Both the position numbers and the translations under genes were made by a program. Of a stretch of DNA of 64,000 nucleotides, positions 23,396 to 31,665 are shown piece by piece. Origin of the DNA: Dehalococcoidia bacterium (GTDB lineage: Bacteria > Chloroflexota > Dehalococcoidia > Lucifugimonadales > UBA1123); assembly GCA_965242675.1 (NCBI GenBank), contig CBDESW010000039.1:20122-84121 (forward strand), in the 5' to 3' direction. Below the pieces are notes generated by a model. The model had not been told where the DNA came from, ran no database searches, and was given only the letters and a program-made list of their open reading frames with translations. The stretch's first letter is position 1; each line of letters opens with the position of its first letter.

Positions 23396-24313
23396 TTAGG
23401 AATCGCCTCCGTCGTCTTCGGACGCCGCCGACGCGTCGGCGGTGAGATTGTGGAACACGTCTTCAAGGCGCGGACGCTCCTCGCGCAGCTCCCACAGCGT
23501 CCAACCGCGCGCCTTCGCCAGTCGGAAGATGTCGGCGCGCGGGTCGTCGTCGCCGGCGACCTTGAGGCGGTAGCGCTTGCGACCGCCGTCAACGCCCTCG
23601 CTGACCGCCTCCGCGACGGAGTCCAAAGTGGCGAGCGCCGCTTCCACGCCGTCGCCTTCCACTTCGATGTGGACGCTCCGCGACGCCAGCGCCTGCTTGA
23701 GCAAATCCTGAACCGGGCTGTTGGCGACCAGCTTGCCGCGGCTTATCACAAGAACGCGCTCGCAAGTGTTTTCCACTTCCTGCATGACGTGGGTGCTGAG
23801 AAGCACAGTCCGATTGCCGCCGAGCCGCCGTATCAAGTCGCGTATCGTGATGCGCTGGTTGGGGTCTAGCCCTTCGGTGGGCTCGTCCAAAACCAAGACG
23901 GAAGGGCGATGCAGAATCGCCTGCGCCAGCCCGACGCGCTGATGGTAGCCTTTGGACAGCTCGTGAATCGGGCGGTAGTAGTATTCCTGAAGCCCGGTTT
24001 CCTCGACTGTCAGATCGAGATTGCGCTTGCGCTCCGCGCCCGCAAGCCCGCGCAACTCGGCGACGAACGCCAGATACTCCGAGACAAGCATATCCTCATA
24101 CAGCGGGTTGTTCTCCGGCAGATAGCCGATGGAGGCGCGGGTCTCGATGTCGTCCTCCTGCGTGTCGCGCCCGTTGATGGCGATGGCGCCGATGTCGGGG
24201 GTGTAGTAGGACGTGAGCATCCGCATGGTGGTGGTTTTGCCGGAGCCGTTGGGCCCCAGAAACCCCACAATCTCGCCGCGCAGGACGTCGAACGACAAGT
24301 TGTCGACCGCCAC
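23396..24313 (-). CDS. ABC transporter ATP-binding protein (N-terminal ~30 codons lie in another frame up to 24410)
   Basis: GPNGSGKTTT (Walker A), LSKGYHQRVGLA (signature) and VLVLDEPT (Walker B). ORF 24096..24410 supplies MADDITKE..VKGVTKRFG. Removing one C from the CCCC run at 24320-24323 joins them as ..KRFGPRVAVDNLSF.. Confidence 0.85.
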   Translation of the reverse strand: MAVDNLSFDVLRGEIVGFLGPNGSGKTTTMRMLTSYYTPDIGAIAINGRDTQEDDIETRASIGYLPENNPLYEDMLVSEYLAFVAELRGLAGAERKRNLDLTVEETGLQEYYYRPIHELSKGYHQRVGLAQAILHRPSVLVLDEPTEGLDPNQRITIRDLIRRLGGNRTVLLSTHVMQEVENTCERVLVISRGKLVANSPVQDLLKQALASRSVHIEVEGDGVEAALATLDSVAEAVSEGVDGGRKRYRLKVAGDDDPRADIFRLAKARGWTLWELREERPRLEDVFHNLTADASAASEDDGGDS

Positions 24314-24576
24314 CCGCGGCCCCGAACCGCTTGGTGACGCCCTTGACGCTGATAGTGGCGGCGGCGGATTCCGCGCCGTTTGATTTTTCTTTGGTTATGT
24401 CGTCTGCCATGAAACGCCTTTCTTCGTCAAGAAGATATACGCAGGGGGCGGGGTTAGCGGATTTATGGGGTTGTTGATTTGCTAAATCGGCTCACTTGTC
24501 AGAGTGAACCTTCCATCGCCGTGTCTATTCCCAAACCGGAAGTCCACGGCGTTACATGTCCGACAATGGAACGGCA

Positions 24577-24984
24577 TTACCAGCGACCTATAATCCTTTT
24601 TATCTCGTCCATGATGTTCGTTATCCACATTTCCATAGGCGTGAGGAGACGAGACCGAACGACATACAGGTAGTATGGCGGCTTTGCCAACTGACCGCCG
24701 CCTCCGCCCTGCTTGTTGTCGGAATCTTGATGCTTGCTGACCAAGATGGCTTCTAGTTTCCGAATCGGATTAGACGTCTCCGTCTGACAGAGAACCACCA
24801 TCTCCTGATACCTGTCCCCAGTATCATAGCAATACTCGTCAGCTCTTCTTCTGGGGTCGGAGGTGATGCCAATCTTGAATTTTCTGTTGCTCGTGAGTCG
24901 GGTTATCCTCCTGCTCGCGTTAGCGACTATTTTGTCGCTAAGCGGTCCTGATTTCACTTTCTTTACTTTCCAAGTAACAATCAT
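24577..24984 (-). CDS. Hypothetical small protein, cassette family A copy 1 (possible GIY-YIG-like core)
   Basis: 135-aa ORF. FKIGITSDPRRRADEY .. LEAILV .. N..GGGGG .. YYLYVV follows the order of YIG / R / E / N motifs of GIY-YIG nucleases. Paralog at 26087..26479. Confidence 0.45.
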   Translation of the reverse strand: MIVTWKVKKVKSGPLSDKIVANASRRITRLTSNRKFKIGITSDPRRRADEYCYDTGDRYQEMVVLCQTETSNPIRKLEAILVSKHQDSDNKQGGGGGQLAKPPYYLYVVRSRLLTPMEMWITNIMDEIKRIIGRW

Positions 24985-25056
24985 CGCATCCCTCCCAGCG
25001 AAGCGAATTTTGCGTCTTGACGCCGAACTCGGATTTTACCCCCAACTCGAGCCTCA

Positions 25057-25284
25057 TCACAACCTATCGAACTCATCCCGCGTCAAGCCGGCTTGTCGGA
25101 TTATCGTTCTCAGCGTCCCCACAGCCACCTCTCTGTGACGCGGCACGATTGTGACGAAGGGGCGACTTCCATCGCTCCGTTTCACGAACTTCACGTGGCT
25201 GCCGTTTTGACTTTCTTCAACGAACCCCGCCGCCCGAAGTTTGCGGACGACGCGGCGATACGGCATGGGTCTAAGTGGCGGCAA
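25057..25284 (-). CDS. hicA: HicA-family toxin (mRNA interferase)
   Basis: 75 aa. ..LRAAGFVEESQNGSHVKFVK..VTIVPRH.EVAVGTLRTIIRQAGL.. is a typical HicA/YcfA signature. Confidence 0.8.
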   Translation of the reverse strand: MPPLRPMPYRRVVRKLRAAGFVEESQNGSHVKFVKRSDGSRPFVTIVPRHREVAVGTLRTIIRQAGLTRDEFDRL

Positions 25285-25477
25285 TCTCCACCTCGACCCG
25301 CCTGATTTTCGGCAACGCTTTCGCGACCGGCGGCTGAAAGTACAACTCCAGCGCCTCGCGCAGGTTGTCGAGCGCCTCGTCTTCCGAAAGCCCCTGACTC
25401 GCCACGTCCACCTCTAGCGCTTGCGCCACGTACCAATCGCCCTCTCGCGTGACGCTTGCGTTGAAAGACCGTTTCAT
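25271..25477 (-). CDS. hicB: HicB-family antitoxin (short form)
   Basis: 68 aa. ..EGDWYVAQALEVDVASQGLSEDEALDNLREALELYF.. Overlaps hicA by 14 nt. Confidence 0.75.
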   Translation of the reverse strand: MKRSFNASVTREGDWYVAQALEVDVASQGLSEDEALDNLREALELYFQPPVAKALPKIRRVEVEIAAT

Positions 25478-25501
25478 TTTTTGCCGCCTCTCTGAATTCC
25501 G

Positions 25502-25855
25502 CTAAGCCAGCCCTTCCACCGGGACGAGCAACTTGTTCACCAGGTCTATTCCCAGACCGAAGTTTTCGAGCGTCACCGCCCCCAGCAACGGAGTGGCGCT
25601 GTCGTCGCTGAAAATCACCGGGGTGGTGCCGTTCATGCCATTCAACTTCGCCCAGGTGTATCCGATGTGGCGGACAATCCGGGAACCGTCCGCCAACCTG
25701 AAAGCCATTGTCCGGTCCGGCTTCACTCCCAACCCGTACAGCAACGTGGACGGGAGGAAAGTGTAAGTCGACCCCGAATCCACAAGCGCATTGACCGGTT
25801 CGAACCGCTTGCCGTCCGGGTCGCCTATTCCCAAATCGACTCTGAACGTTCCCAT
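25502..25855 (-). CDS. Retropepsin-like (clan AA) aspartyl protease, intact D-S-G copy (P1)
   Basis: MGTFRVDLGIGDPDGKRFEPVNALVDSGSTYTFLP.. with the catalytic DSG. Start at the second ATG of ORF 25502..25891. Confidence 0.7.
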   Translation of the reverse strand: MGTFRVDLGIGDPDGKRFEPVNALVDSGSTYTFLPSTLLYGLGVKPDRTMAFRLADGSRIVRHIGYTWAKLNGMNGTTPVIFSDDSATPLLGAVTLENFGLGIDLVNKLLVPVEGLA

Positions 25856-25865
25856 ATTGCCCTCC

Positions 25866-26099
25866 TTACAACCGCGCTCTGATTGGAACAATCCTGCCGT
25901 TCGCTTCGTCTATCTCCCGGAAGACCGACGCCAGCGTCACATGCCCCAGCGTGGGAACGGCGCCGTCATCGCCGAAAACCACGGGGGCGATGCCCTCCGC
26001 GCCGTTCACCCTAACCCAAGTCTGGGCGAATCTGCGCTCGATGCGCGAGCCGTCCGGCAACTCGAAAGCGGCCATCCGATGGGATTTCATCCCCACCAC
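25866..26099 (-). pseudogene. C-terminal fragment of a retropepsin-like paralog (P2)
   Basis: ..HRMAAFELPDGSRIERRFAQTWVRVNGAEGIAPVVFGDDGAVPTLGHVTL..ANGRIVPIRARL is collinear with the C-terminal two-thirds of 27610..27963. The N-terminal active-site half is missing. Confidence 0.6.
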
Positions 26100-26479
26100 C
26101 GGAATCGTCTTATGAGGCGAGAGCGAACGATGTACAGGTAGTATGGTCCACGCCTTCCTATGAGGCCGCCGCCGCCGCCCTGTTCGTTATCGGAGCCTTG
26201 CATGTGCTTTCTGACCAACATGGCTTCCATGTCCCGAACTCTCTGGCGGCCCCCCGTCTGATAGAGAACCACCATTTGGTGATACCTACCAGAGTCACGA
26301 GAGTCATACTCGCTGGCTCTTCTTTCGGGGTCGTTGGTGATGCCTATCTTGAAGTTTCTCCTGAAGTTTCTCTTGCCCCTCTTGTATTGAGCTATCCTCC
26401 TGTGCAAGGTCAAGAACTCGTCCGAGTTTTCGGTGAGCGGCCCAGACTTCCCTTTTTCTACCCTCCAAGTGACAATCAT
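26087..26479 (-). CDS. Hypothetical small protein, cassette family A copy 2
   Basis: Starts at MIVTWRVEKGK within ORF 26087..26560. It has the same motif order as 24577..24984. About 60 nt upstream of both ATGs is conserved (gggtaaaatccgagttc.gc.tcaagacgcaaa.tt.gc..ggaggga). Confidence 0.45.
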   Translation of the reverse strand: MIVTWRVEKGKSGPLTENSDEFLTLHRRIAQYKRGKRNFRRNFKIGITNDPERRASEYDSRDSGRYHQMVVLYQTGGRQRVRDMEAMLVRKHMQGSDNEQGGGGGLIGRRGPYYLYIVRSRLIRRFRWWG

Positions 26480-26574
26480 TGCATCCCTCCTTCGCCATGC
26501 AAACTTTGCGTCTTGATGCTGAACTCGGATTTTACCCTCGTCGCAGATAAAGCCGTCCATTCCGCTAAGGTTTA

Positions 26575-26740
26575 CCCAAGTCTGGGCGAACCCTCACTTG
26601 ATGCGTGAACCGTCCACCAACTTGAAAGTCACCGTCCGATGCGGTTTGACGCACAAATCGGCGAGTAGGGCGGACGGCAGGACAGCGTAAGGCGTCCAAG
26701 AACCCGCGAGCGCATCAACCCGCTTGCAGTCCGGTCGACT
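26575..26740 (-). pseudogene. Degenerate N-terminal fragment of a retropepsin-like paralog (P3)
   Basis: The nucleotide string acccaagtctgggcgaa..ccgatgcggtttgacgc..agggcggacggcagga..gcgtaaggcgtcc aligns with 27760-27880 of P4. It contains an in-frame stop. Confidence 0.4.
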
Positions 26741-27314
26741 ATCTCGATTTTGGCAACGGGACGCCTCTCAGCCAGTCGTTCACCCCTTTGATTCCGATTT
26801 TCTTAGCGGCTAGCAGGACGAGTTCAGCCGCCGCTCTAGCGTCTTCGCCAGCGTCGTGGGAGTCGTAGCGGATTCCCAATCTCGGCGCTATTTTCGGCAA
26901 ACTATGGCTTGACCTGCGGGGCCAGACCTTCTTCGCTAGCGCCCAGCAACTGTCCCGCCACTCATTTCTGAGCATCGGCAATCTGTGACGCCTACAGGCT
27001 CGGCGAATGACGTCTTCGTCAGACAGCGTATGGCTCACTATTCTCCCGCCCGCGACGCTTCCCTTGATTTCGGGGTATACGTCCCTAAAGGACGGCTCGC
27101 CGCGCACATCAGCGGGGTGGATGCCATGTGTCTCGCTATTTTTCCACCACCACTCACTGGCGTCGATTTGCGGGTCTATCAACTGAGACCAGTTGTCCAC
27201 AATTTCCCCTGATTTTACGACGGCGACTCCGACCTGACAGATGCTCCACTTCAGATCTCTAGTGGGGTTCGCAGTTTCAACATCTATCACCGCGAAGTTC
27301 AAGATTCTCGCCAT
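26739..27314 (-). CDS. DEDDh-type 3'-5' exonuclease (DnaQ/epsilon-like)
   Basis: Starts at MARILNFAVIDVETAN (Exo I DxE). SHDAGEDARAAAEL gives Exo III H-x4-D. ORF 26739..27401. Confidence 0.7.
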   Translation of the reverse strand: MARILNFAVIDVETANPTRDLKWSICQVGVAVVKSGEIVDNWSQLIDPQIDASEWWWKNSETHGIHPADVRGEPSFRDVYPEIKGSVAGGRIVSHTLSDEDVIRRACRRHRLPMLRNEWRDSCWALAKKVWPRRSSHSLPKIAPRLGIRYDSHDAGEDARAAAELVLLAAKKIGIKGVNDWLRGVPLPKSR

Positions 27315-27454
27315 TCCAGTCTCCGTTCGTTTAGTTAATCTAAAAGAGGCTTGTCGCCCAACGTACTTTATAGGATACCCCACTTCCTTTATCGTCCGCA
27401 AACAATTTAGGAAGGTTGGGAAATTCGCAATAGGTCAACCCGTCCGCGCGCAAA

Positions 27455-27513
27455 CCTGCGCATAGCGGCGCAGTCACCCTCACCCTAGCCCTCTCCCATC
27501 AAGGGAGAGGTGA
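27455..27513. repeat. A0-A modules of the interspersed repeat family
   Basis: cctgcgcatagcggcgcag + tcaccctcaccctagccctctcccatcaagggagaggtgat. Confidence 0.8.
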
Positions 27514-27609
27514 TTTGTCGACCGATATTCGCGCTTGTTTTCGGTTTGACATCGCTGGAGGGAGACTTTGGCAAATTTTTCTCGTCGTAAATTCACCAAC
27601 CGCCCAACC

Positions 27610-27963
27610 TTACAACCTCGCCTTGATTGGAACAATCCTGCCGTTCGCTTCGTCTATCTCCAGTCTGATCGCCGCCAGCGTCACATGCCCCAGCGCAGGA
27701 ACGGCGTCATCATCGCCGAAAACCACGGGGGCGATGCCTTCCGCGCCGTTCACCCTGACCCAAGTCTGGGCGAATCCGAGTTCGATGCGCGAGCCGTCCG
27801 CCGTCTCGAAAGCCGCCATCCGATGCGGTTTGACGCCTAGACTTTCGAGCAGGGCGGACGGCAGGACGGCGTAAGGCGTCCGCGAATTGGCGAGCGCGTT
27901 GATTCGTATGAACTGTCTGCCGTCCGGGTCGCCTATTTGGATTTCGACGTTGAACGTTCCCAT
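27610..27963 (-). CDS. Retropepsin-like paralog with a degenerate active site (P4)
   Basis: MGTFNVEIQIGDPDGRQFIRINALANSRTPYAVLP.. has N-S-R where P1 has D-S-G. Flanked on both sides by A-module repeats. Confidence 0.6.
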   Translation of the reverse strand: MGTFNVEIQIGDPDGRQFIRINALANSRTPYAVLPSALLESLGVKPHRMAAFETADGSRIELGFAQTWVRVNGAEGIAPVVFGDDDAVPALGHVTLAAIRLEIDEANGRIVPIKARL

Positions 27964-27996
27964 GTCGTCCGCGCTTAATTGGACTTGCGGGGGCAA

Positions 27997-28055
27997 CTGC
28001 GCCTAGCGGCGCAGGCACCCTCACCCTAACCCTCTCCCATCAAGGGAGAGGGGAT
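27997..28055. repeat. A0-A modules of the interspersed repeat family
   Basis: actgcgcctagcggcgcag + gcaccctcaccctaaccctctcccatcaagggagaggggat. Confidence 0.8.
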
Positions 28056-28102
28056 TTGTTGGTTGAGATTCGCGCCTGTTTTCGGCGGACACGCCTCCCG
28101 CA

Positions 28103-28175
28103 AGCCACTGACCACTAGCCACTAATCACTGACCACTAGCCACTGGCAACTAGCCACTGCCAACTGGCCGCTACC
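28103..28175. repeat. Short-period (6-7 nt) low-complexity repeat CCACT(R)(R) directly 3' of the groEL stop
   Basis: agccactgaccactagccactaatcactgaccactagccactggcaactagccactgccaactggccgct. Confidence 0.8.
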
Positions 28176-28177
28176 CC

Positions 28178-29779
28178 CTAATCGTCATACGGCGCGGGCA
28201 GTTTCATCGGGTTCAGCTCGGTGATTAGCGATTCGGTGGTCAGCACCATGCCGGCGACGCTGGCGGCGTTTTCCAGCGCCGCGCGCGTCACTTTCGCCGG
28301 GTCGACTATGCCCAGGTCGAACATGTCGCCGTAGCTTTCCGTCTCGGCGTCGAAGCCGAACTCGCCGCCGCCCGCTCGGACTCGGTGCAGGACGACCTCG
28401 CCCGACAAGCCCGCGTTGGAGGATATGACTTTCACCGGCTCTTCCGCCGCTCGGAGCGCCAGGTTGACGCCGGCGGCTTCGTCGCCTTGCGATTCTATCT
28501 TGGACACCGCCCGCTGCGCCGCGCGGAGCATCGCCGTGCCGCCGCCGGGGACTATGCCCTCTTCCATCGCCGCGCGGGACGCCGAGAGCGCGTCCTCGAG
28601 GCGCTGCTTCTTCTCGCGCAGCTCGATTTCGGTCGCCGCGCCCACGCGCAGAACCGAGACGCCGCCCGACAGCTTCGCCGCGCGCTCCTGCAACTTCTCG
28701 CGGTCGTAGTCCGACGTGGTGTCCTCCGCCTGCGCGAGTATCTGCGACACGCGGGACTGGATGGCGTCTTCCGCGCCGCCGCCGTCCACGAAGGTGGTGT
28801 TGTCCTTGTCGGCGATGACCCGCCGGCAGCGCCCCAGGTCGGCTACCGTGACGGACTGCAGGTCGCGCCCCGTTTCCTCGCTGATGACCTGGCAGCCGAA
28901 CAGGATGGACATGTCCTCCAGAATCGCCTTGCGGCGGTCGCCGAACGCGGGCGCTTTCATGGCGACGCAGTTCAGAACCCCGCGCAACTTGTTCACCACC
29001 AGCGTGGCGAGCGCCTCGCCGTCCACATCCTCCGCTATCAGCACGAAGTCTTTGGACACCTGCGAAACCTGCTCCAAGACGGGCAGAAGGTCGCCCACCG
29101 CCGACACTTTGGCGGACGTCACCAGAATGTAGGGGTTCTCCACTTCCGCTATCATCCTGTCCTGATTCGTGGCGAAATAGGGCGACAGGTAGCCTCTGTC
29201 GACCTGCATCCCCTCGACGTAGTCCACTTCGTAGTCGAGCCCCTTGGACTCTTCCACCGTCACGACGCCGTTCGCCCCGACCTTGTCGAGGACGTCGGCG
29301 ATGAGCTCGCCCATCTCCGGGTCGTGCGCCGAGAGGACGGCGACTTGGCGGATGCGGTCTTTGTCGCCGACGGGCTGGGACATGCCGCGGATTTCTTCGC
29401 GCATCCCCGAAACCGCCTTCTCGATGCCGCGCTTGACGGACATCGGATTGGCGCCCGCCGCGAGTATCCTGAAGCCGTCCCGAATCATCGCCTGCGCGAC
29501 GACGGTGGACGTGGTGGTTCCGTCGCCCACGTCGTCGTTGGTCTTGCTGGACGCCTCTTTGAGCAGCTGCGCGCCCATGTTGGGGAAGGGCTCTTTGAGC
29601 TCGACCTCTTTGGCGATGGTCACGCCGTCGCTGCACACGTGGGGGGGTCCGAACTCTTTGTCCAGCACCACGTTTCTGCCGCCGGGGCCGAGCGTGACCC
29701 CGACCGCCGCCGCCAGCGTGTCTATGCCCGACATAAGTTGCTGCCGGGCGTCCGCGTCGAATTGAAACTGCTTAGCCAT
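28178..29779 (-). CDS. groEL: Chaperonin GroEL (60 kDa), no adjacent groES
   Basis: ATG at 29779 within ORF 28178..30034. MAKQFQFDADARQQLMSGIDTLAAAVGVTLGPGGRNVVLDK..DGVTIAKEVEL..VGDGTTTSTVVAQ.. The C-terminus ends ..PAPYDD, with no GGM repeats. Confidence 0.95.
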   Translation of the reverse strand: MAKQFQFDADARQQLMSGIDTLAAAVGVTLGPGGRNVVLDKEFGPPHVCSDGVTIAKEVELKEPFPNMGAQLLKEASSKTNDDVGDGTTTSTVVAQAMIRDGFRILAAGANPMSVKRGIEKAVSGMREEIRGMSQPVGDKDRIRQVAVLSAHDPEMGELIADVLDKVGANGVVTVEESKGLDYEVDYVEGMQVDRGYLSPYFATNQDRMIAEVENPYILVTSAKVSAVGDLLPVLEQVSQVSKDFVLIAEDVDGEALATLVVNKLRGVLNCVAMKAPAFGDRRKAILEDMSILFGCQVISEETGRDLQSVTVADLGRCRRVIADKDNTTFVDGGGAEDAIQSRVSQILAQAEDTTSDYDREKLQERAAKLSGGVSVLRVGAATEIELREKKQRLEDALSASRAAMEEGIVPGGGTAMLRAAQRAVSKIESQGDEAAGVNLALRAAEEPVKVISSNAGLSGEVVLHRVRAGGGEFGFDAETESYGDMFDLGIVDPAKVTRAALENAASVAGMVLTTESLITELNPMKLPAPYDD

Positions 29780-31580: not shown

Positions 31581-31665
31581 GGGGAAGTGTCGGAATTGGC
31601 AGACGAGCATGACTTAGGATCATGTGCCTTAGGGCGTCCGGGTTCGAATCCCGGCTTCCCCACCA
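31581..31665 (+). tRNA. tRNA-Leu (anticodon TAG), class II with a long variable arm, CCA encoded
   Basis: Manual fold: acceptor ggggaag/cttcccc, D stem tcg/cga, anticodon stem catga/tcatg with loop cTTAGga, variable arm tgccttagggcgt, T arm ccggg-ttcgaat-cccgg, then A-CCA. Confidence 0.9.

Follow-up and report, generated by a model that had tools for sequence, protein, structure and literature searches.

What kind of element occupies the short, comparatively GC-poor stretch between groEL and an ABC-transporter ATPase gene in a Dehalococcoidia bacterium? We analyzed a window of 64,000 nt, the whole stretch of DNA under study (GCA_965242675.1, contig CBDESW010000039.1, positions 20,122-84,121; coordinates below are window positions). 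In it, an islet of ~3.7 kb (24411-28177) carries a HicB-HicA toxin-antitoxin (TA) pair, two alleles of a small GIY-YIG-like gene (cassette A), a stand-alone DEDDh exonuclease (Exo), and several copies or remnants of a retropepsin-like family (P). With modest confidence, we read this islet as a recombination-shuffled hotspot of independent small TA and nuclease modules, variable between strains and species, at the groEL/ABC site of a sponge-type Dehalococcoidia (SAR202-like) genus.

Four modules would make up the hotspot. The first would be the hicBA addiction pair, and the second two diverged GIY-YIG-like nuclease alleles, both with the same short promoter-like leader. The third would be the stand-alone DEDDh exonuclease, whose clade lies elsewhere beside a DNA methyltransferase or Cas3, and the fourth the P family, with one catalytic copy, one non-catalytic copy, and three scars; the copies probably supply homology for exchange. 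The islet would work not as one machine but as a collection of addiction- and defense-type nucleases under conflict-like allele turnover.

An Accessory Islet and Its Same-Site Variants

The islet (24420-28100) has a GC content of 0.562, compared with 0.642 and 0.647 in its flanks and 0.644 in the genome (standard deviation (sd) 0.023 over windows of equal length). This value lies 3.6 sd under the genome mean, and one equally low occurs in 0.36% of 7750 genome windows. The deviation is strongest in A1, A2, and Exo, with GC of 0.485-0.56 and GC at third codon positions (GC3) of 0.60-0.66; HicB, P1, P2, and P4 are closer to native (GC3 0.73-0.78), and the genes for the ABC ATPase, a GldG-type permease, and groEL reach 0.83-0.88. 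Of the 18 congeners searched first, 17 have just 167-359 nt between groEL and the ABC gene, an empty site, which marks the islet as accessory. An initial annotation of the sequence had proposed a stretch of lower GC than its flanks, foreign and accessory, partly decayed, and of defense or addiction type. The composition (GC3 included), the empty sites, the pseudogene fragments, and the membership of the genes in TA or nuclease families typical of such islets all bear this out.

Every gene is encoded on the minus strand, and transcription runs P4, Exo, P3 fragment, A2, P2 fragment, P1, hicB, hicA, A1, exactly as that annotation had given it. The four retropepsin-like copies that it counted are present, and to them we add a fifth remnant, P0. 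From left to right, the islet contains:

~24487-24567, minus strand: P0, a remnant of the last ~27 codons of P, ending in VGHVTPWTSGLGIDTAMEGSL and a stop codon, directly past the A1 stop codon
24577-24984, minus strand: cassette A1, 135 aa, Pfam T5orf172
24985-25062, minus strand: A1 leader, a conserved 5' stretch of ~65 nt that includes a -10-like TAAAAT and a GGAGG ahead of the ATG, common to A2 and the L008 allele
25057-25284, minus strand: hicA, a 75-aa HicA toxin with a GSH motif, Pfam HicA_toxin PF07927
25271-25477, minus strand: hicB, a 68-aa single-domain putative HicB-family antitoxin, overlapping hicA by 14 nt
25502-25855, minus strand: P1, 117 aa, with intact D-S-G-S-T, ending 24 nt before hicB
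25866-26087, minus strand: P2, a 3' fragment (codons ~41-117), 89% identical to P4 in nucleotide sequence, catalytic region absent
26087-26479, minus strand: cassette A2, 130 aa from MIVTWR, between P3 and P2, with its leader at 26480-26537
26565-26746 (about), minus strand: P3, an internal fragment (codons ~9-76) with an in-frame stop and a degenerate AGSWTP; a pseudogene
26739-27317, minus strand: Exo, a 192-aa stand-alone DnaQ-like DEDDh 3'-5' exonuclease, RNase_T PF00929
27610-27963, minus strand: P4, full-length at 117 aa, with A-N-S-R-T-P in place of D-S/T-G

We compared the same site in seven metagenome contigs (labels L007 to L101, including L007-L009 and L099-L101), whose flanks are 92-98% identical to those of the window at the amino acid level, and in three congeners (G labels denote genomes). 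Their contents, read from groEL to ABC, are as follows:

L007: P (DSR)-HicB-HicA' (N-terminal 35 codons)-A
L008: HicB-HicA-A
L009: HicB-A-P
L099: P-P-HicB-Exo-Exo-HicB'-HicA'-A
L100 and L101: Exo-Exo-P-HicB-HicA'-A
G017: A-P-Uma2-like-P
G040: P-Uma2-like (Uma2 named from sequence only)
G094: a single P

The clearest evidence for modular exchange comes from the alignment of L100 with L101, the latter on a 4.58-Mb contig that has a circular tag in its name. Their flanks, P, and Exo-A are 94-100% identical in nucleotide sequence, A is 33-73% identical, and Exo-B 66-91%. By this pattern, A and Exo alleles are replaced between near-identical backgrounds. In the window itself, P3 and P2 share an overlapping segment of 74-96 nt that is 78% identical, which fits recombination between two P alleles better than clean insertion with target duplication.

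Pairwise ratios of nonsynonymous to synonymous substitution (dN/dS, by NG86) differ between the gene families:

flanks (ABC, groEL): dN/dS 0.02-0.11, dS 0.1-0.6
HicB: dN/dS 0.04-0.24, dS within the flank range
P: dN/dS 0.24-0.58, dead-motif copies included
A: dN/dS 0.23-0.75, dN up to 0.5
Exo: dN/dS 0.42-1.1

The low ratio of HicB, together with dS in the flank range, marks a long-resident, constrained gene, no less conserved than the flanks. P4 compared with the equally degenerate P of L100 and L101 gives 0.29-0.31, and values of ~0.3 for dead-motif P point to maintained proteins rather than pseudogenes. The only ratio above 1, for Exo-A between L100 and L101 (1.12), involves very few substitutions. 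Combined with the allele replacement, the ratios indicate that A and Exo evolve fast, as is typical of conflict genes.

These values also bear on the idea that the islet is nonfunctional debris, left over from an earlier insertion, in decay and without a role today. The fragments P0, P2, and P3, the in-frame stop in P3, the lost motif of P4, and the truncation of HicA in relatives are what decay would leave behind. However, A1, A2, Exo, HicA, HicB, P1, and P4 are full-length open frames, nearly all pairwise dN/dS values are clearly below 1, dead-motif P included, and members of the HicB, P, A, and Exo families have been kept at the site across lineages whose flanks differ by dS of 0.1-0.6. We therefore consider debris extremely improbable.

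For the hotspot that we favor, the ancestral arrangement may have been groEL-P-ABC, as in G094, with P plus a Uma2-like gene in G040. Gain of hicBA and A would have followed, and in the lineage of the window Exo and a second A allele would have been taken up between or inside P copies, leaving P3, P2, and P0 as probable breakpoint scars. We infer both this order of events and the role in defense or addiction.

Every component belongs to a known superfamily, and a variable TA or defense islet at a fixed core position is likewise a known phenomenon: such islets between conserved core genes have been described for E. coli, Pseudomonas, and Vibrio. The groEL/ABC islet shares with chromosomal hotspots a fixed core-gene site that is mostly empty, variable content, low GC, TA and nuclease genes, and allele replacement. 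It differs in its size of only 3.7 kb, in the absence of an integrase, tRNA, phage or satellite backbone, or PADLOC system, and in its retropepsin-like family, which is not known from such hotspots.

A classical integrative island or prophage remnant was considered and rejected. The islet contains no integrase or recombinase open reading frame (ORF) and no tRNA or attachment (att) site, the nearest tRNA lies at 31581, and the flanking repeats are REP-like (repetitive extragenic palindromic) elements found genome-wide. An Rfam scan of the islet returned no RNA family, and promoter and terminator scans of it stayed at chance level.

By their ABC ATPase, the nearest named relatives are Dehalococcoidia metagenome-assembled genomes (MAGs) and "SAR202 cluster bacterium bin90", at 65-68% amino acid identity. 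The bin90 and bin94 MAGs agree by name with bins of the Aplysina aerophoba sponge metagenome study. In that study, sponge symbionts, SAR202 among them, are reported to be enriched in defense and TA genes (Slaby et al. 2017, PMC5649159). If our reading is true, the site offers a small, clean example of a hotspot in an uncultured sponge-type member of the Chloroflexota, with nuclease and TA genes swapped allele by allele between near-identical genomes, and it would be informative on the turnover of conflict genes in symbionts with few mobile elements.

The hicB-hicA Pair and Possible Coupling to Its Neighbors

HicA matches PF07927 along the entire profile (positions 1-58 of 58; 60.2 bits, cut-off 27; E 2e-16) as well as phrog_353, "toxin". 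HicB scores 27.2 bits against Pfam DUF7387, slightly below the 27.9 cut-off, and a search with it gave over 1000 homologues. Among those listed, the more distant show 67-79% identity and include some assigned by name to other phyla; NCBI and JGI label several in the 67-73% range "type II toxin-antitoxin system HicB family antitoxin". The sole PDB match of HicB by sequence is weak (TTHA1756, E 0.8). Judged by these family matches, hicB-hicA is a predicted type II TA pair that is intact in the window.

The HicAB type II TA system was reportedly described by Makarova, Grishin, and Koonin in 2006. The pair shares with it the full-length HicA profile match and a small HicB-family partner that overlaps by 14 nt. 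Three features differ: hicB precedes hicA; HicB is minimal, its 68 aa lacking the DNA-binding domain, ribbon-helix-helix or helix-turn-helix, at the C terminus of canonical two-domain HicB; and in most sister islets hicA is truncated yet hicB is kept. Minimal HicB forms are known, and the N-domain is reported to be enough to inhibit HicA (cited in PMC13621843). HicA is cut to ~35-39 codons in L007, L099, L100, L101, and P0009. In P0009 and in L100 (L100:7208-7714) this N-terminal part of hicA, its first ~35-39 codons, continues in frame into A, which gives a possible chimeric ORF of ~162-168 aa; the junction is out of frame in L007, L099, and L101.

This arrangement raises the alternative of one integrated system, with HicB as the antitoxin or regulator of A, A having displaced HicA as effector, P as a third component, and Exo as an optional accessory. 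The active protease would remove HicB upon a trigger, and the dead paralogue would be a sensor or an inhibitory heterodimer partner. Such coupling could account for the gene order P-HicB-(HicA')-A that the window shares with L007, L099, L100, and L101, for the adjacency of HicB and A in L009, and for the constant, tight spacing of 15-39 nt from P to hicB, but all of this concerns one locus in one genus, where a conserved order is possibly mere inheritance. HicB retains its dN/dS of 0.04-0.24 despite the truncation of HicA in L007, L099, L100, L101, and P0009, although the HicB family is highly conserved everywhere and a low ratio needs no special partner. The in-frame HicA(N)-A fusions of P0009 and L100 would suit a displaced effector, whereas the frameshift of HicA' relative to A in L007, L099, and L101 is what decay predicts, and A1, A2, and the L008 allele have their own promoter-like leader. 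Purifying selection on dead-motif P (dN/dS ~0.3) speaks for such a system, as does the HicB_lk_antitox gene that neighbors a distant A homologue. On the other side, distant A homologues keep different partners and lack P, and nearly all other P loci of this genome and of the order are without HicB and A.

On balance, we regard an integrated system as unlikely. Its most specific form strikes us as quite unlikely: an undescribed three-part TA or defense module of P, HicB, and A, in which A would stand in HicA's place under HicB, active P would free the effector by removing HicB, dead P would poison the protease dimer, and Exo would be a hypervariable add-on. If an integrated system were true, it would add a new toxin class for HicB-type antitoxins and the first toxin-control function for bacterial retropepsin-like proteins. 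The initial annotation had suggested a possible novel stress or defense module and a check of the gene neighborhoods of its homologues in other genomes. A, Exo, P, and HicB do occur together in at least seven other contigs, so that this check does not refute the suggestion, but they do so at only one chromosomal site in one genus. Distant homologues of A and Exo are found without P or HicB, and P is mostly solitary elsewhere; a single novel module is conceivable.

Several results weigh against a hotspot of independent modules. The order P-HicB-(HicA/HicA')-A and the 15-39 nt between P and hicB are kept wherever a contig covers them, and this constancy could reflect functional coupling rather than shared ancestry. 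Where only ~35-39 codons of HicA are left, HicB is still whole and strongly conserved, which is unexpected for an independent hicBA. PADLOC-DB v2, a check that the initial annotation had proposed, gave no complete system in the islet and hence no known defense system; only Exo has matches, and A, P, HicA, and HicB have nothing significant. A is a predicted nuclease, and a Foldseek search of the PDB with its model matched no solved structure, GIY-YIG or other, below E 0.3. Finally, all same-site variants come from one genus and are thus not independent.

A literature search found no account that joins bacterial retropepsin-like proteins with TA systems, and PADLOC holds no such system. As far as these searches reach, three things are undescribed: the A subfamily; the repeated occurrence of both active and dead retropepsin-like genes alongside small nucleases (HicA, A, Exo, Uma2, methyltransferase); and the persistence of HicB beside A after the loss of HicA.

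Cassette A and the DEDDh Exonuclease

A1 matches T5orf172 marginally (22.0 bits, cut-off 20), and the alignment covers only profile positions 12-69 of 101, so the first (GIY) strand is unmatched. Across the family, 13 of 17 members match T5orf172 and 12 match MUG113 (best E 1.9e-6), and A2 matches phrog_681, "endonuclease", at E 7e-4. R47, E78, and N90 are invariant in all 17 sequences and, by analogy, may be catalytic residues. The AlphaFold2 (AF2) model of A1 has a predicted local distance difference test score (pLDDT) of 85.5, and Foldseek against BFVD retrieves a giant-virus GIY-YIG domain protein (E 5.8e-7, TMq 0.64); the A1 sequence searched against the PDB gave noise or nothing. On the basis of the hidden Markov model (HMM) matches, the BFVD fold match, and the invariant residues, we call A a minimal GIY-YIG-superfamily (T5orf172/MUG113-like) protein.

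With GIY-YIG/T5orf172 proteins A shares the KIGxT…R…E core by HMM, the invariant R, E, and N, a predicted fold that matches the one viral GIY-YIG domain protein, and a patchy, cassette-like distribution at recombination boundaries. It differs from them in being much shorter, in having no DNA-binding domain, a matched GIY strand, or a match to a solved structure, in adding an N-terminal strand-helix and a conserved GGGGG loop, and in its chromosomal location in an uncultured bacterium. A would thus define a rare minimal GIY-YIG/T5orf172-like family of ~105-135 aa.

The two copies of A in the islet are the only ones in the genome. A1 and A2 are 53% identical in amino acid and 71% in DNA sequence; A1 falls together with the L008 allele (63-65%), and A2 clusters with those of L009 and L101 (62-64% at the amino acid level, by tblastn or codon alignment). 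The initial annotation had proposed internal duplication. A recent duplication of A is rejected by this divergence and by the closer relatives in other genomes: A1 and A2 are two old alleles of different groups brought together, and the A1/A2 and P pieces are diverged alleles that recombination or allele replacement has joined. With its leader, the cassette seems to bring expression signals of its own; the promoter-like TTGTGA-18-TAAAAT of A1 matches the consensus but does not exceed chance for the region.

The surroundings of A vary from case to case. Upstream lies a whole hicA, hicA codon ~35-39, hicB, or P codon ~76, and downstream a whole P, P codons 41-117, P codons ~89-117, or plain spacer, which gives at least four different junctions on each side. 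With regard to a homing endonuclease gene, allele replacement is confined to A, and A sits within or beside broken P and hicA genes, with heterogeneous junctions. Strict site-specific homing is not supported, given the differing junctions.

A looser form of this idea makes A a selfish, free-standing homing-endonuclease-like gene that cuts at or near the locus, is copied into the break, and drives the rearrangements, with the other genes as bystanders. A belongs to the T5orf172/MUG113 branch, and T5orf172 genes of ICP1-type phages are free-standing homing-endonuclease genes at recombination boundaries, where exchange occurs (PMC10448857); however, at ~105-135 aa and with no recognizable DNA-binding domain, A is unlike characterized GIY-YIG homing enzymes. 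It is a self-contained cassette with its own leader, and its family is rare and patchy, with 16 clusters among 5.8 billion proteins and occurrence in 4 of 201 genomes of the order, but the genome has just two copies, both of them in this islet. A2 sits between two P pieces, A1 abuts a P remnant, and the 3' half of hicA is replaced by A in five variants, but the junctions vary by case, with no single target site evident, and the P3/P2 overlap (~74-96 nt, 78%) favors recombination of P alleles over clean insertion. The sharp drop in identity confined to A between near-identical genomes would fit homing as well. Taken together, we find it decidedly unlikely that A drives the rearrangements as a homing gene.

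Distant A homologues have other neighbors, namely GmrSD_N, HATPase_c_3/sigma-like pairs, type IV secretion system, transposase, and HicB-like genes, and an MNT-like gene (named from sequence only). No P was found within ~4 kb of them where the contig reaches that far. In L011, a distant A homologue lies between two tandem pairs of sigma70_r2-like (~190-200 aa) and HATPase_c_3 (~610 aa) genes, a two-gene unit that is repeated. In L013 (GCA_002581705.1), an A homologue overlaps the 3' end of a 667-aa GmrSD_N (DUF262) gene, and in GmrSD-type enzymes this GIY-YIG-like protein may take the part of the usual nuclease half, DUF1524/HNH.

Exo scores 57.4 bits against RNase_T (cut-off 24), matches the NCBIfam DnaQ/DEDDh models, and has all of its motifs: ExoI DVE, ExoII D, and ExoIII H…D (IDVETAN, SHTLSDED, HDAGEDA). 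Its PADLOC matches are PDC-S48 (E 1e-22) and a Cas-associated DEDDh protein (E 2e-21), and in the PDB it matches 2p1j (E 4e-9) and the DinG exonuclease domain. Homologues of 64-71% identity occupy the same locus in L099-L101, and distant ones adjoin an N6/N4 DNA methyltransferase or Cas3. Exo thus resembles the stand-alone DEDDh proteins of defense loci (CRISPR-associated, PDC-S48) in its motifs, its single ~190-aa domain, its PADLOC matches, and these Cas3- and methyltransferase-adjacent homologues; it differs in that here it has no cas1/cas2 or methyltransferase neighbor and often occurs in sister islets as two diverged tandem copies. These copies, the usual state in sister islets, are 74-79% identical in amino acid sequence, and Exo-B is mosaic between near-identical genomes. 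Exo and its relatives would define a defense-linked clade of stand-alone DEDDh exonucleases.

Retropepsin-Like Copies, Repeats, and Flanks

P1 reaches 28.4 bits against Asp_protease_2 (PF13650; cut-off 24.3). Its AF2 model (pLDDT 92.4) has a retropepsin fold, and Foldseek retrieves as top hits from the PDB the XMRV, SFV, HIV-1, FIV, and EIAV proteases, Rickettsia APRc, and Ddi1 RVP with probability 1.00 and template modeling (TM) scores of 0.55-0.72; the P1 sequence itself gave noise or nothing against the PDB. By analogy with these proteins, P1 may be a homodimeric enzyme. The catalytic D-T/S-G motif is present in P1 (DSGST), altered in P4 (NSRTP) and P3 (GSWTP), and lost with its region in P2 and P0. 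P4 reaches no Pfam aspartic-protease model and matches TIGR03698 at E 1e-6; at 36.9 and 28.9 bits, P1 and P4 both miss the NCBIfam TIGR03698 (AF_0612-type) cut-off of 57.35. P0 aligns with P codons 89-116 at a local score of 45, reached by 2 of 300 shuffles. In relatives its position is taken by a whole P beside the ABC gene (L009, G017); in G040 a Uma2-like gene separates P and ABC.

With single-domain peptidases of clan AA (Asp_protease_2, TIGR03698-type, APRc; Ddi1 RVP), the family shares the ~117-aa retropepsin fold and, in P1, D-S/T-G. It differs in being cytosolic, without membrane or ubiquitin-like domains, in scoring below the TIGR03698 cut-off, in its 21 loci in this genome, and in the recurrence of full-length copies that lack the catalytic Asp or Gly yet are under purifying selection. 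P would define a multi-copy retropepsin-like family with conserved, catalytically dead members, and the order-wide pairs of active and dead P genes may form a couple of protease plus pseudo-protease inhibitor. To our knowledge, nobody has studied the cellular role of this family.

Of 151 genomes examined in the order, 91 contain P, at up to 24 matches in one genome, and most copies are solitary or tandem. Among 28 P loci taken from the order's other genomes, hicBA is close by in only one or two, and A and Exo in none; a general P-HicB or P-A linkage outside the genus was not found. A search for related loci with P1 alone found nothing.

Some P loci elsewhere in the window's own genome (G000) resemble parts of the islet. 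At G000:C6:106587-108170, four tandem P genes lie between a Pol X-family gene and secA, the outer ones with DTGAT and the inner ones with the degenerate DARST and DTRST; the P of L007 (DSRAT) has the same change of the catalytic G to R as the inner copies. At G000:C44:13514-16211, a gene for a 584-aa DNA methyltransferase is enclosed by two direct P copies of 117 aa each that have few differences. This P-cargo-P pattern recurs at the groEL site, where P copies enclose Exo, A2, and the Uma2-like gene. Another P of this genome adjoins a Uma2-like gene.

The remaining features are the flanking genes and two copies of a repeat:

23396-24410, minus strand: ABC-transporter ATPase gene, left flank, conserved in all congeners
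27456-27544, no strand: copy 1 of a REP-like hairpin repeat, 89 nt, core CCCTCTCCCATCAAGGGAGAGG
27997-28085, no strand: copy 2 of the repeat, 89 nt, 89% identical to copy 1
28178-29779, minus strand: groEL, 533 aa from MAKQFQF, right flank, conserved in all congeners

The initial annotation had described the repeats, under the name A-module, as bracketing P4 and decorating the island's right end. The bracketing stands, whereas the decoration gives way to a dispersed element: the two copies together yield 1031 blastn-short matches genome-wide, the hairpin core occurs by pattern in 178-302 copies, and the element is present in congeners too. The genome-wide distribution makes the copies uninformative on island borders. 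The other P loci of the genome are not flanked by the repeat, and its role as island end or mobilizing unit is rejected.

In the ABC ATPase gene, a G-run near 24320 (24314-24330) contains a +1 frameshift just past codon ~30 (…VKGVTKRFG), so that the N-terminal 30 aa lie in a different frame from the rest; L007, L008, and L009 have a single ORF of 335-337 aa (336 aa in L008 and L009). Either the gene is truly disrupted or the assembly has a homopolymer error here, and the shift suggests that the assembly may contain errors of this kind. At the other end, 7-nt tandem repeats of the CCACT(N)2 type (28098-28181) fill the spacer between the groEL stop codon and the adjacent REP copy.

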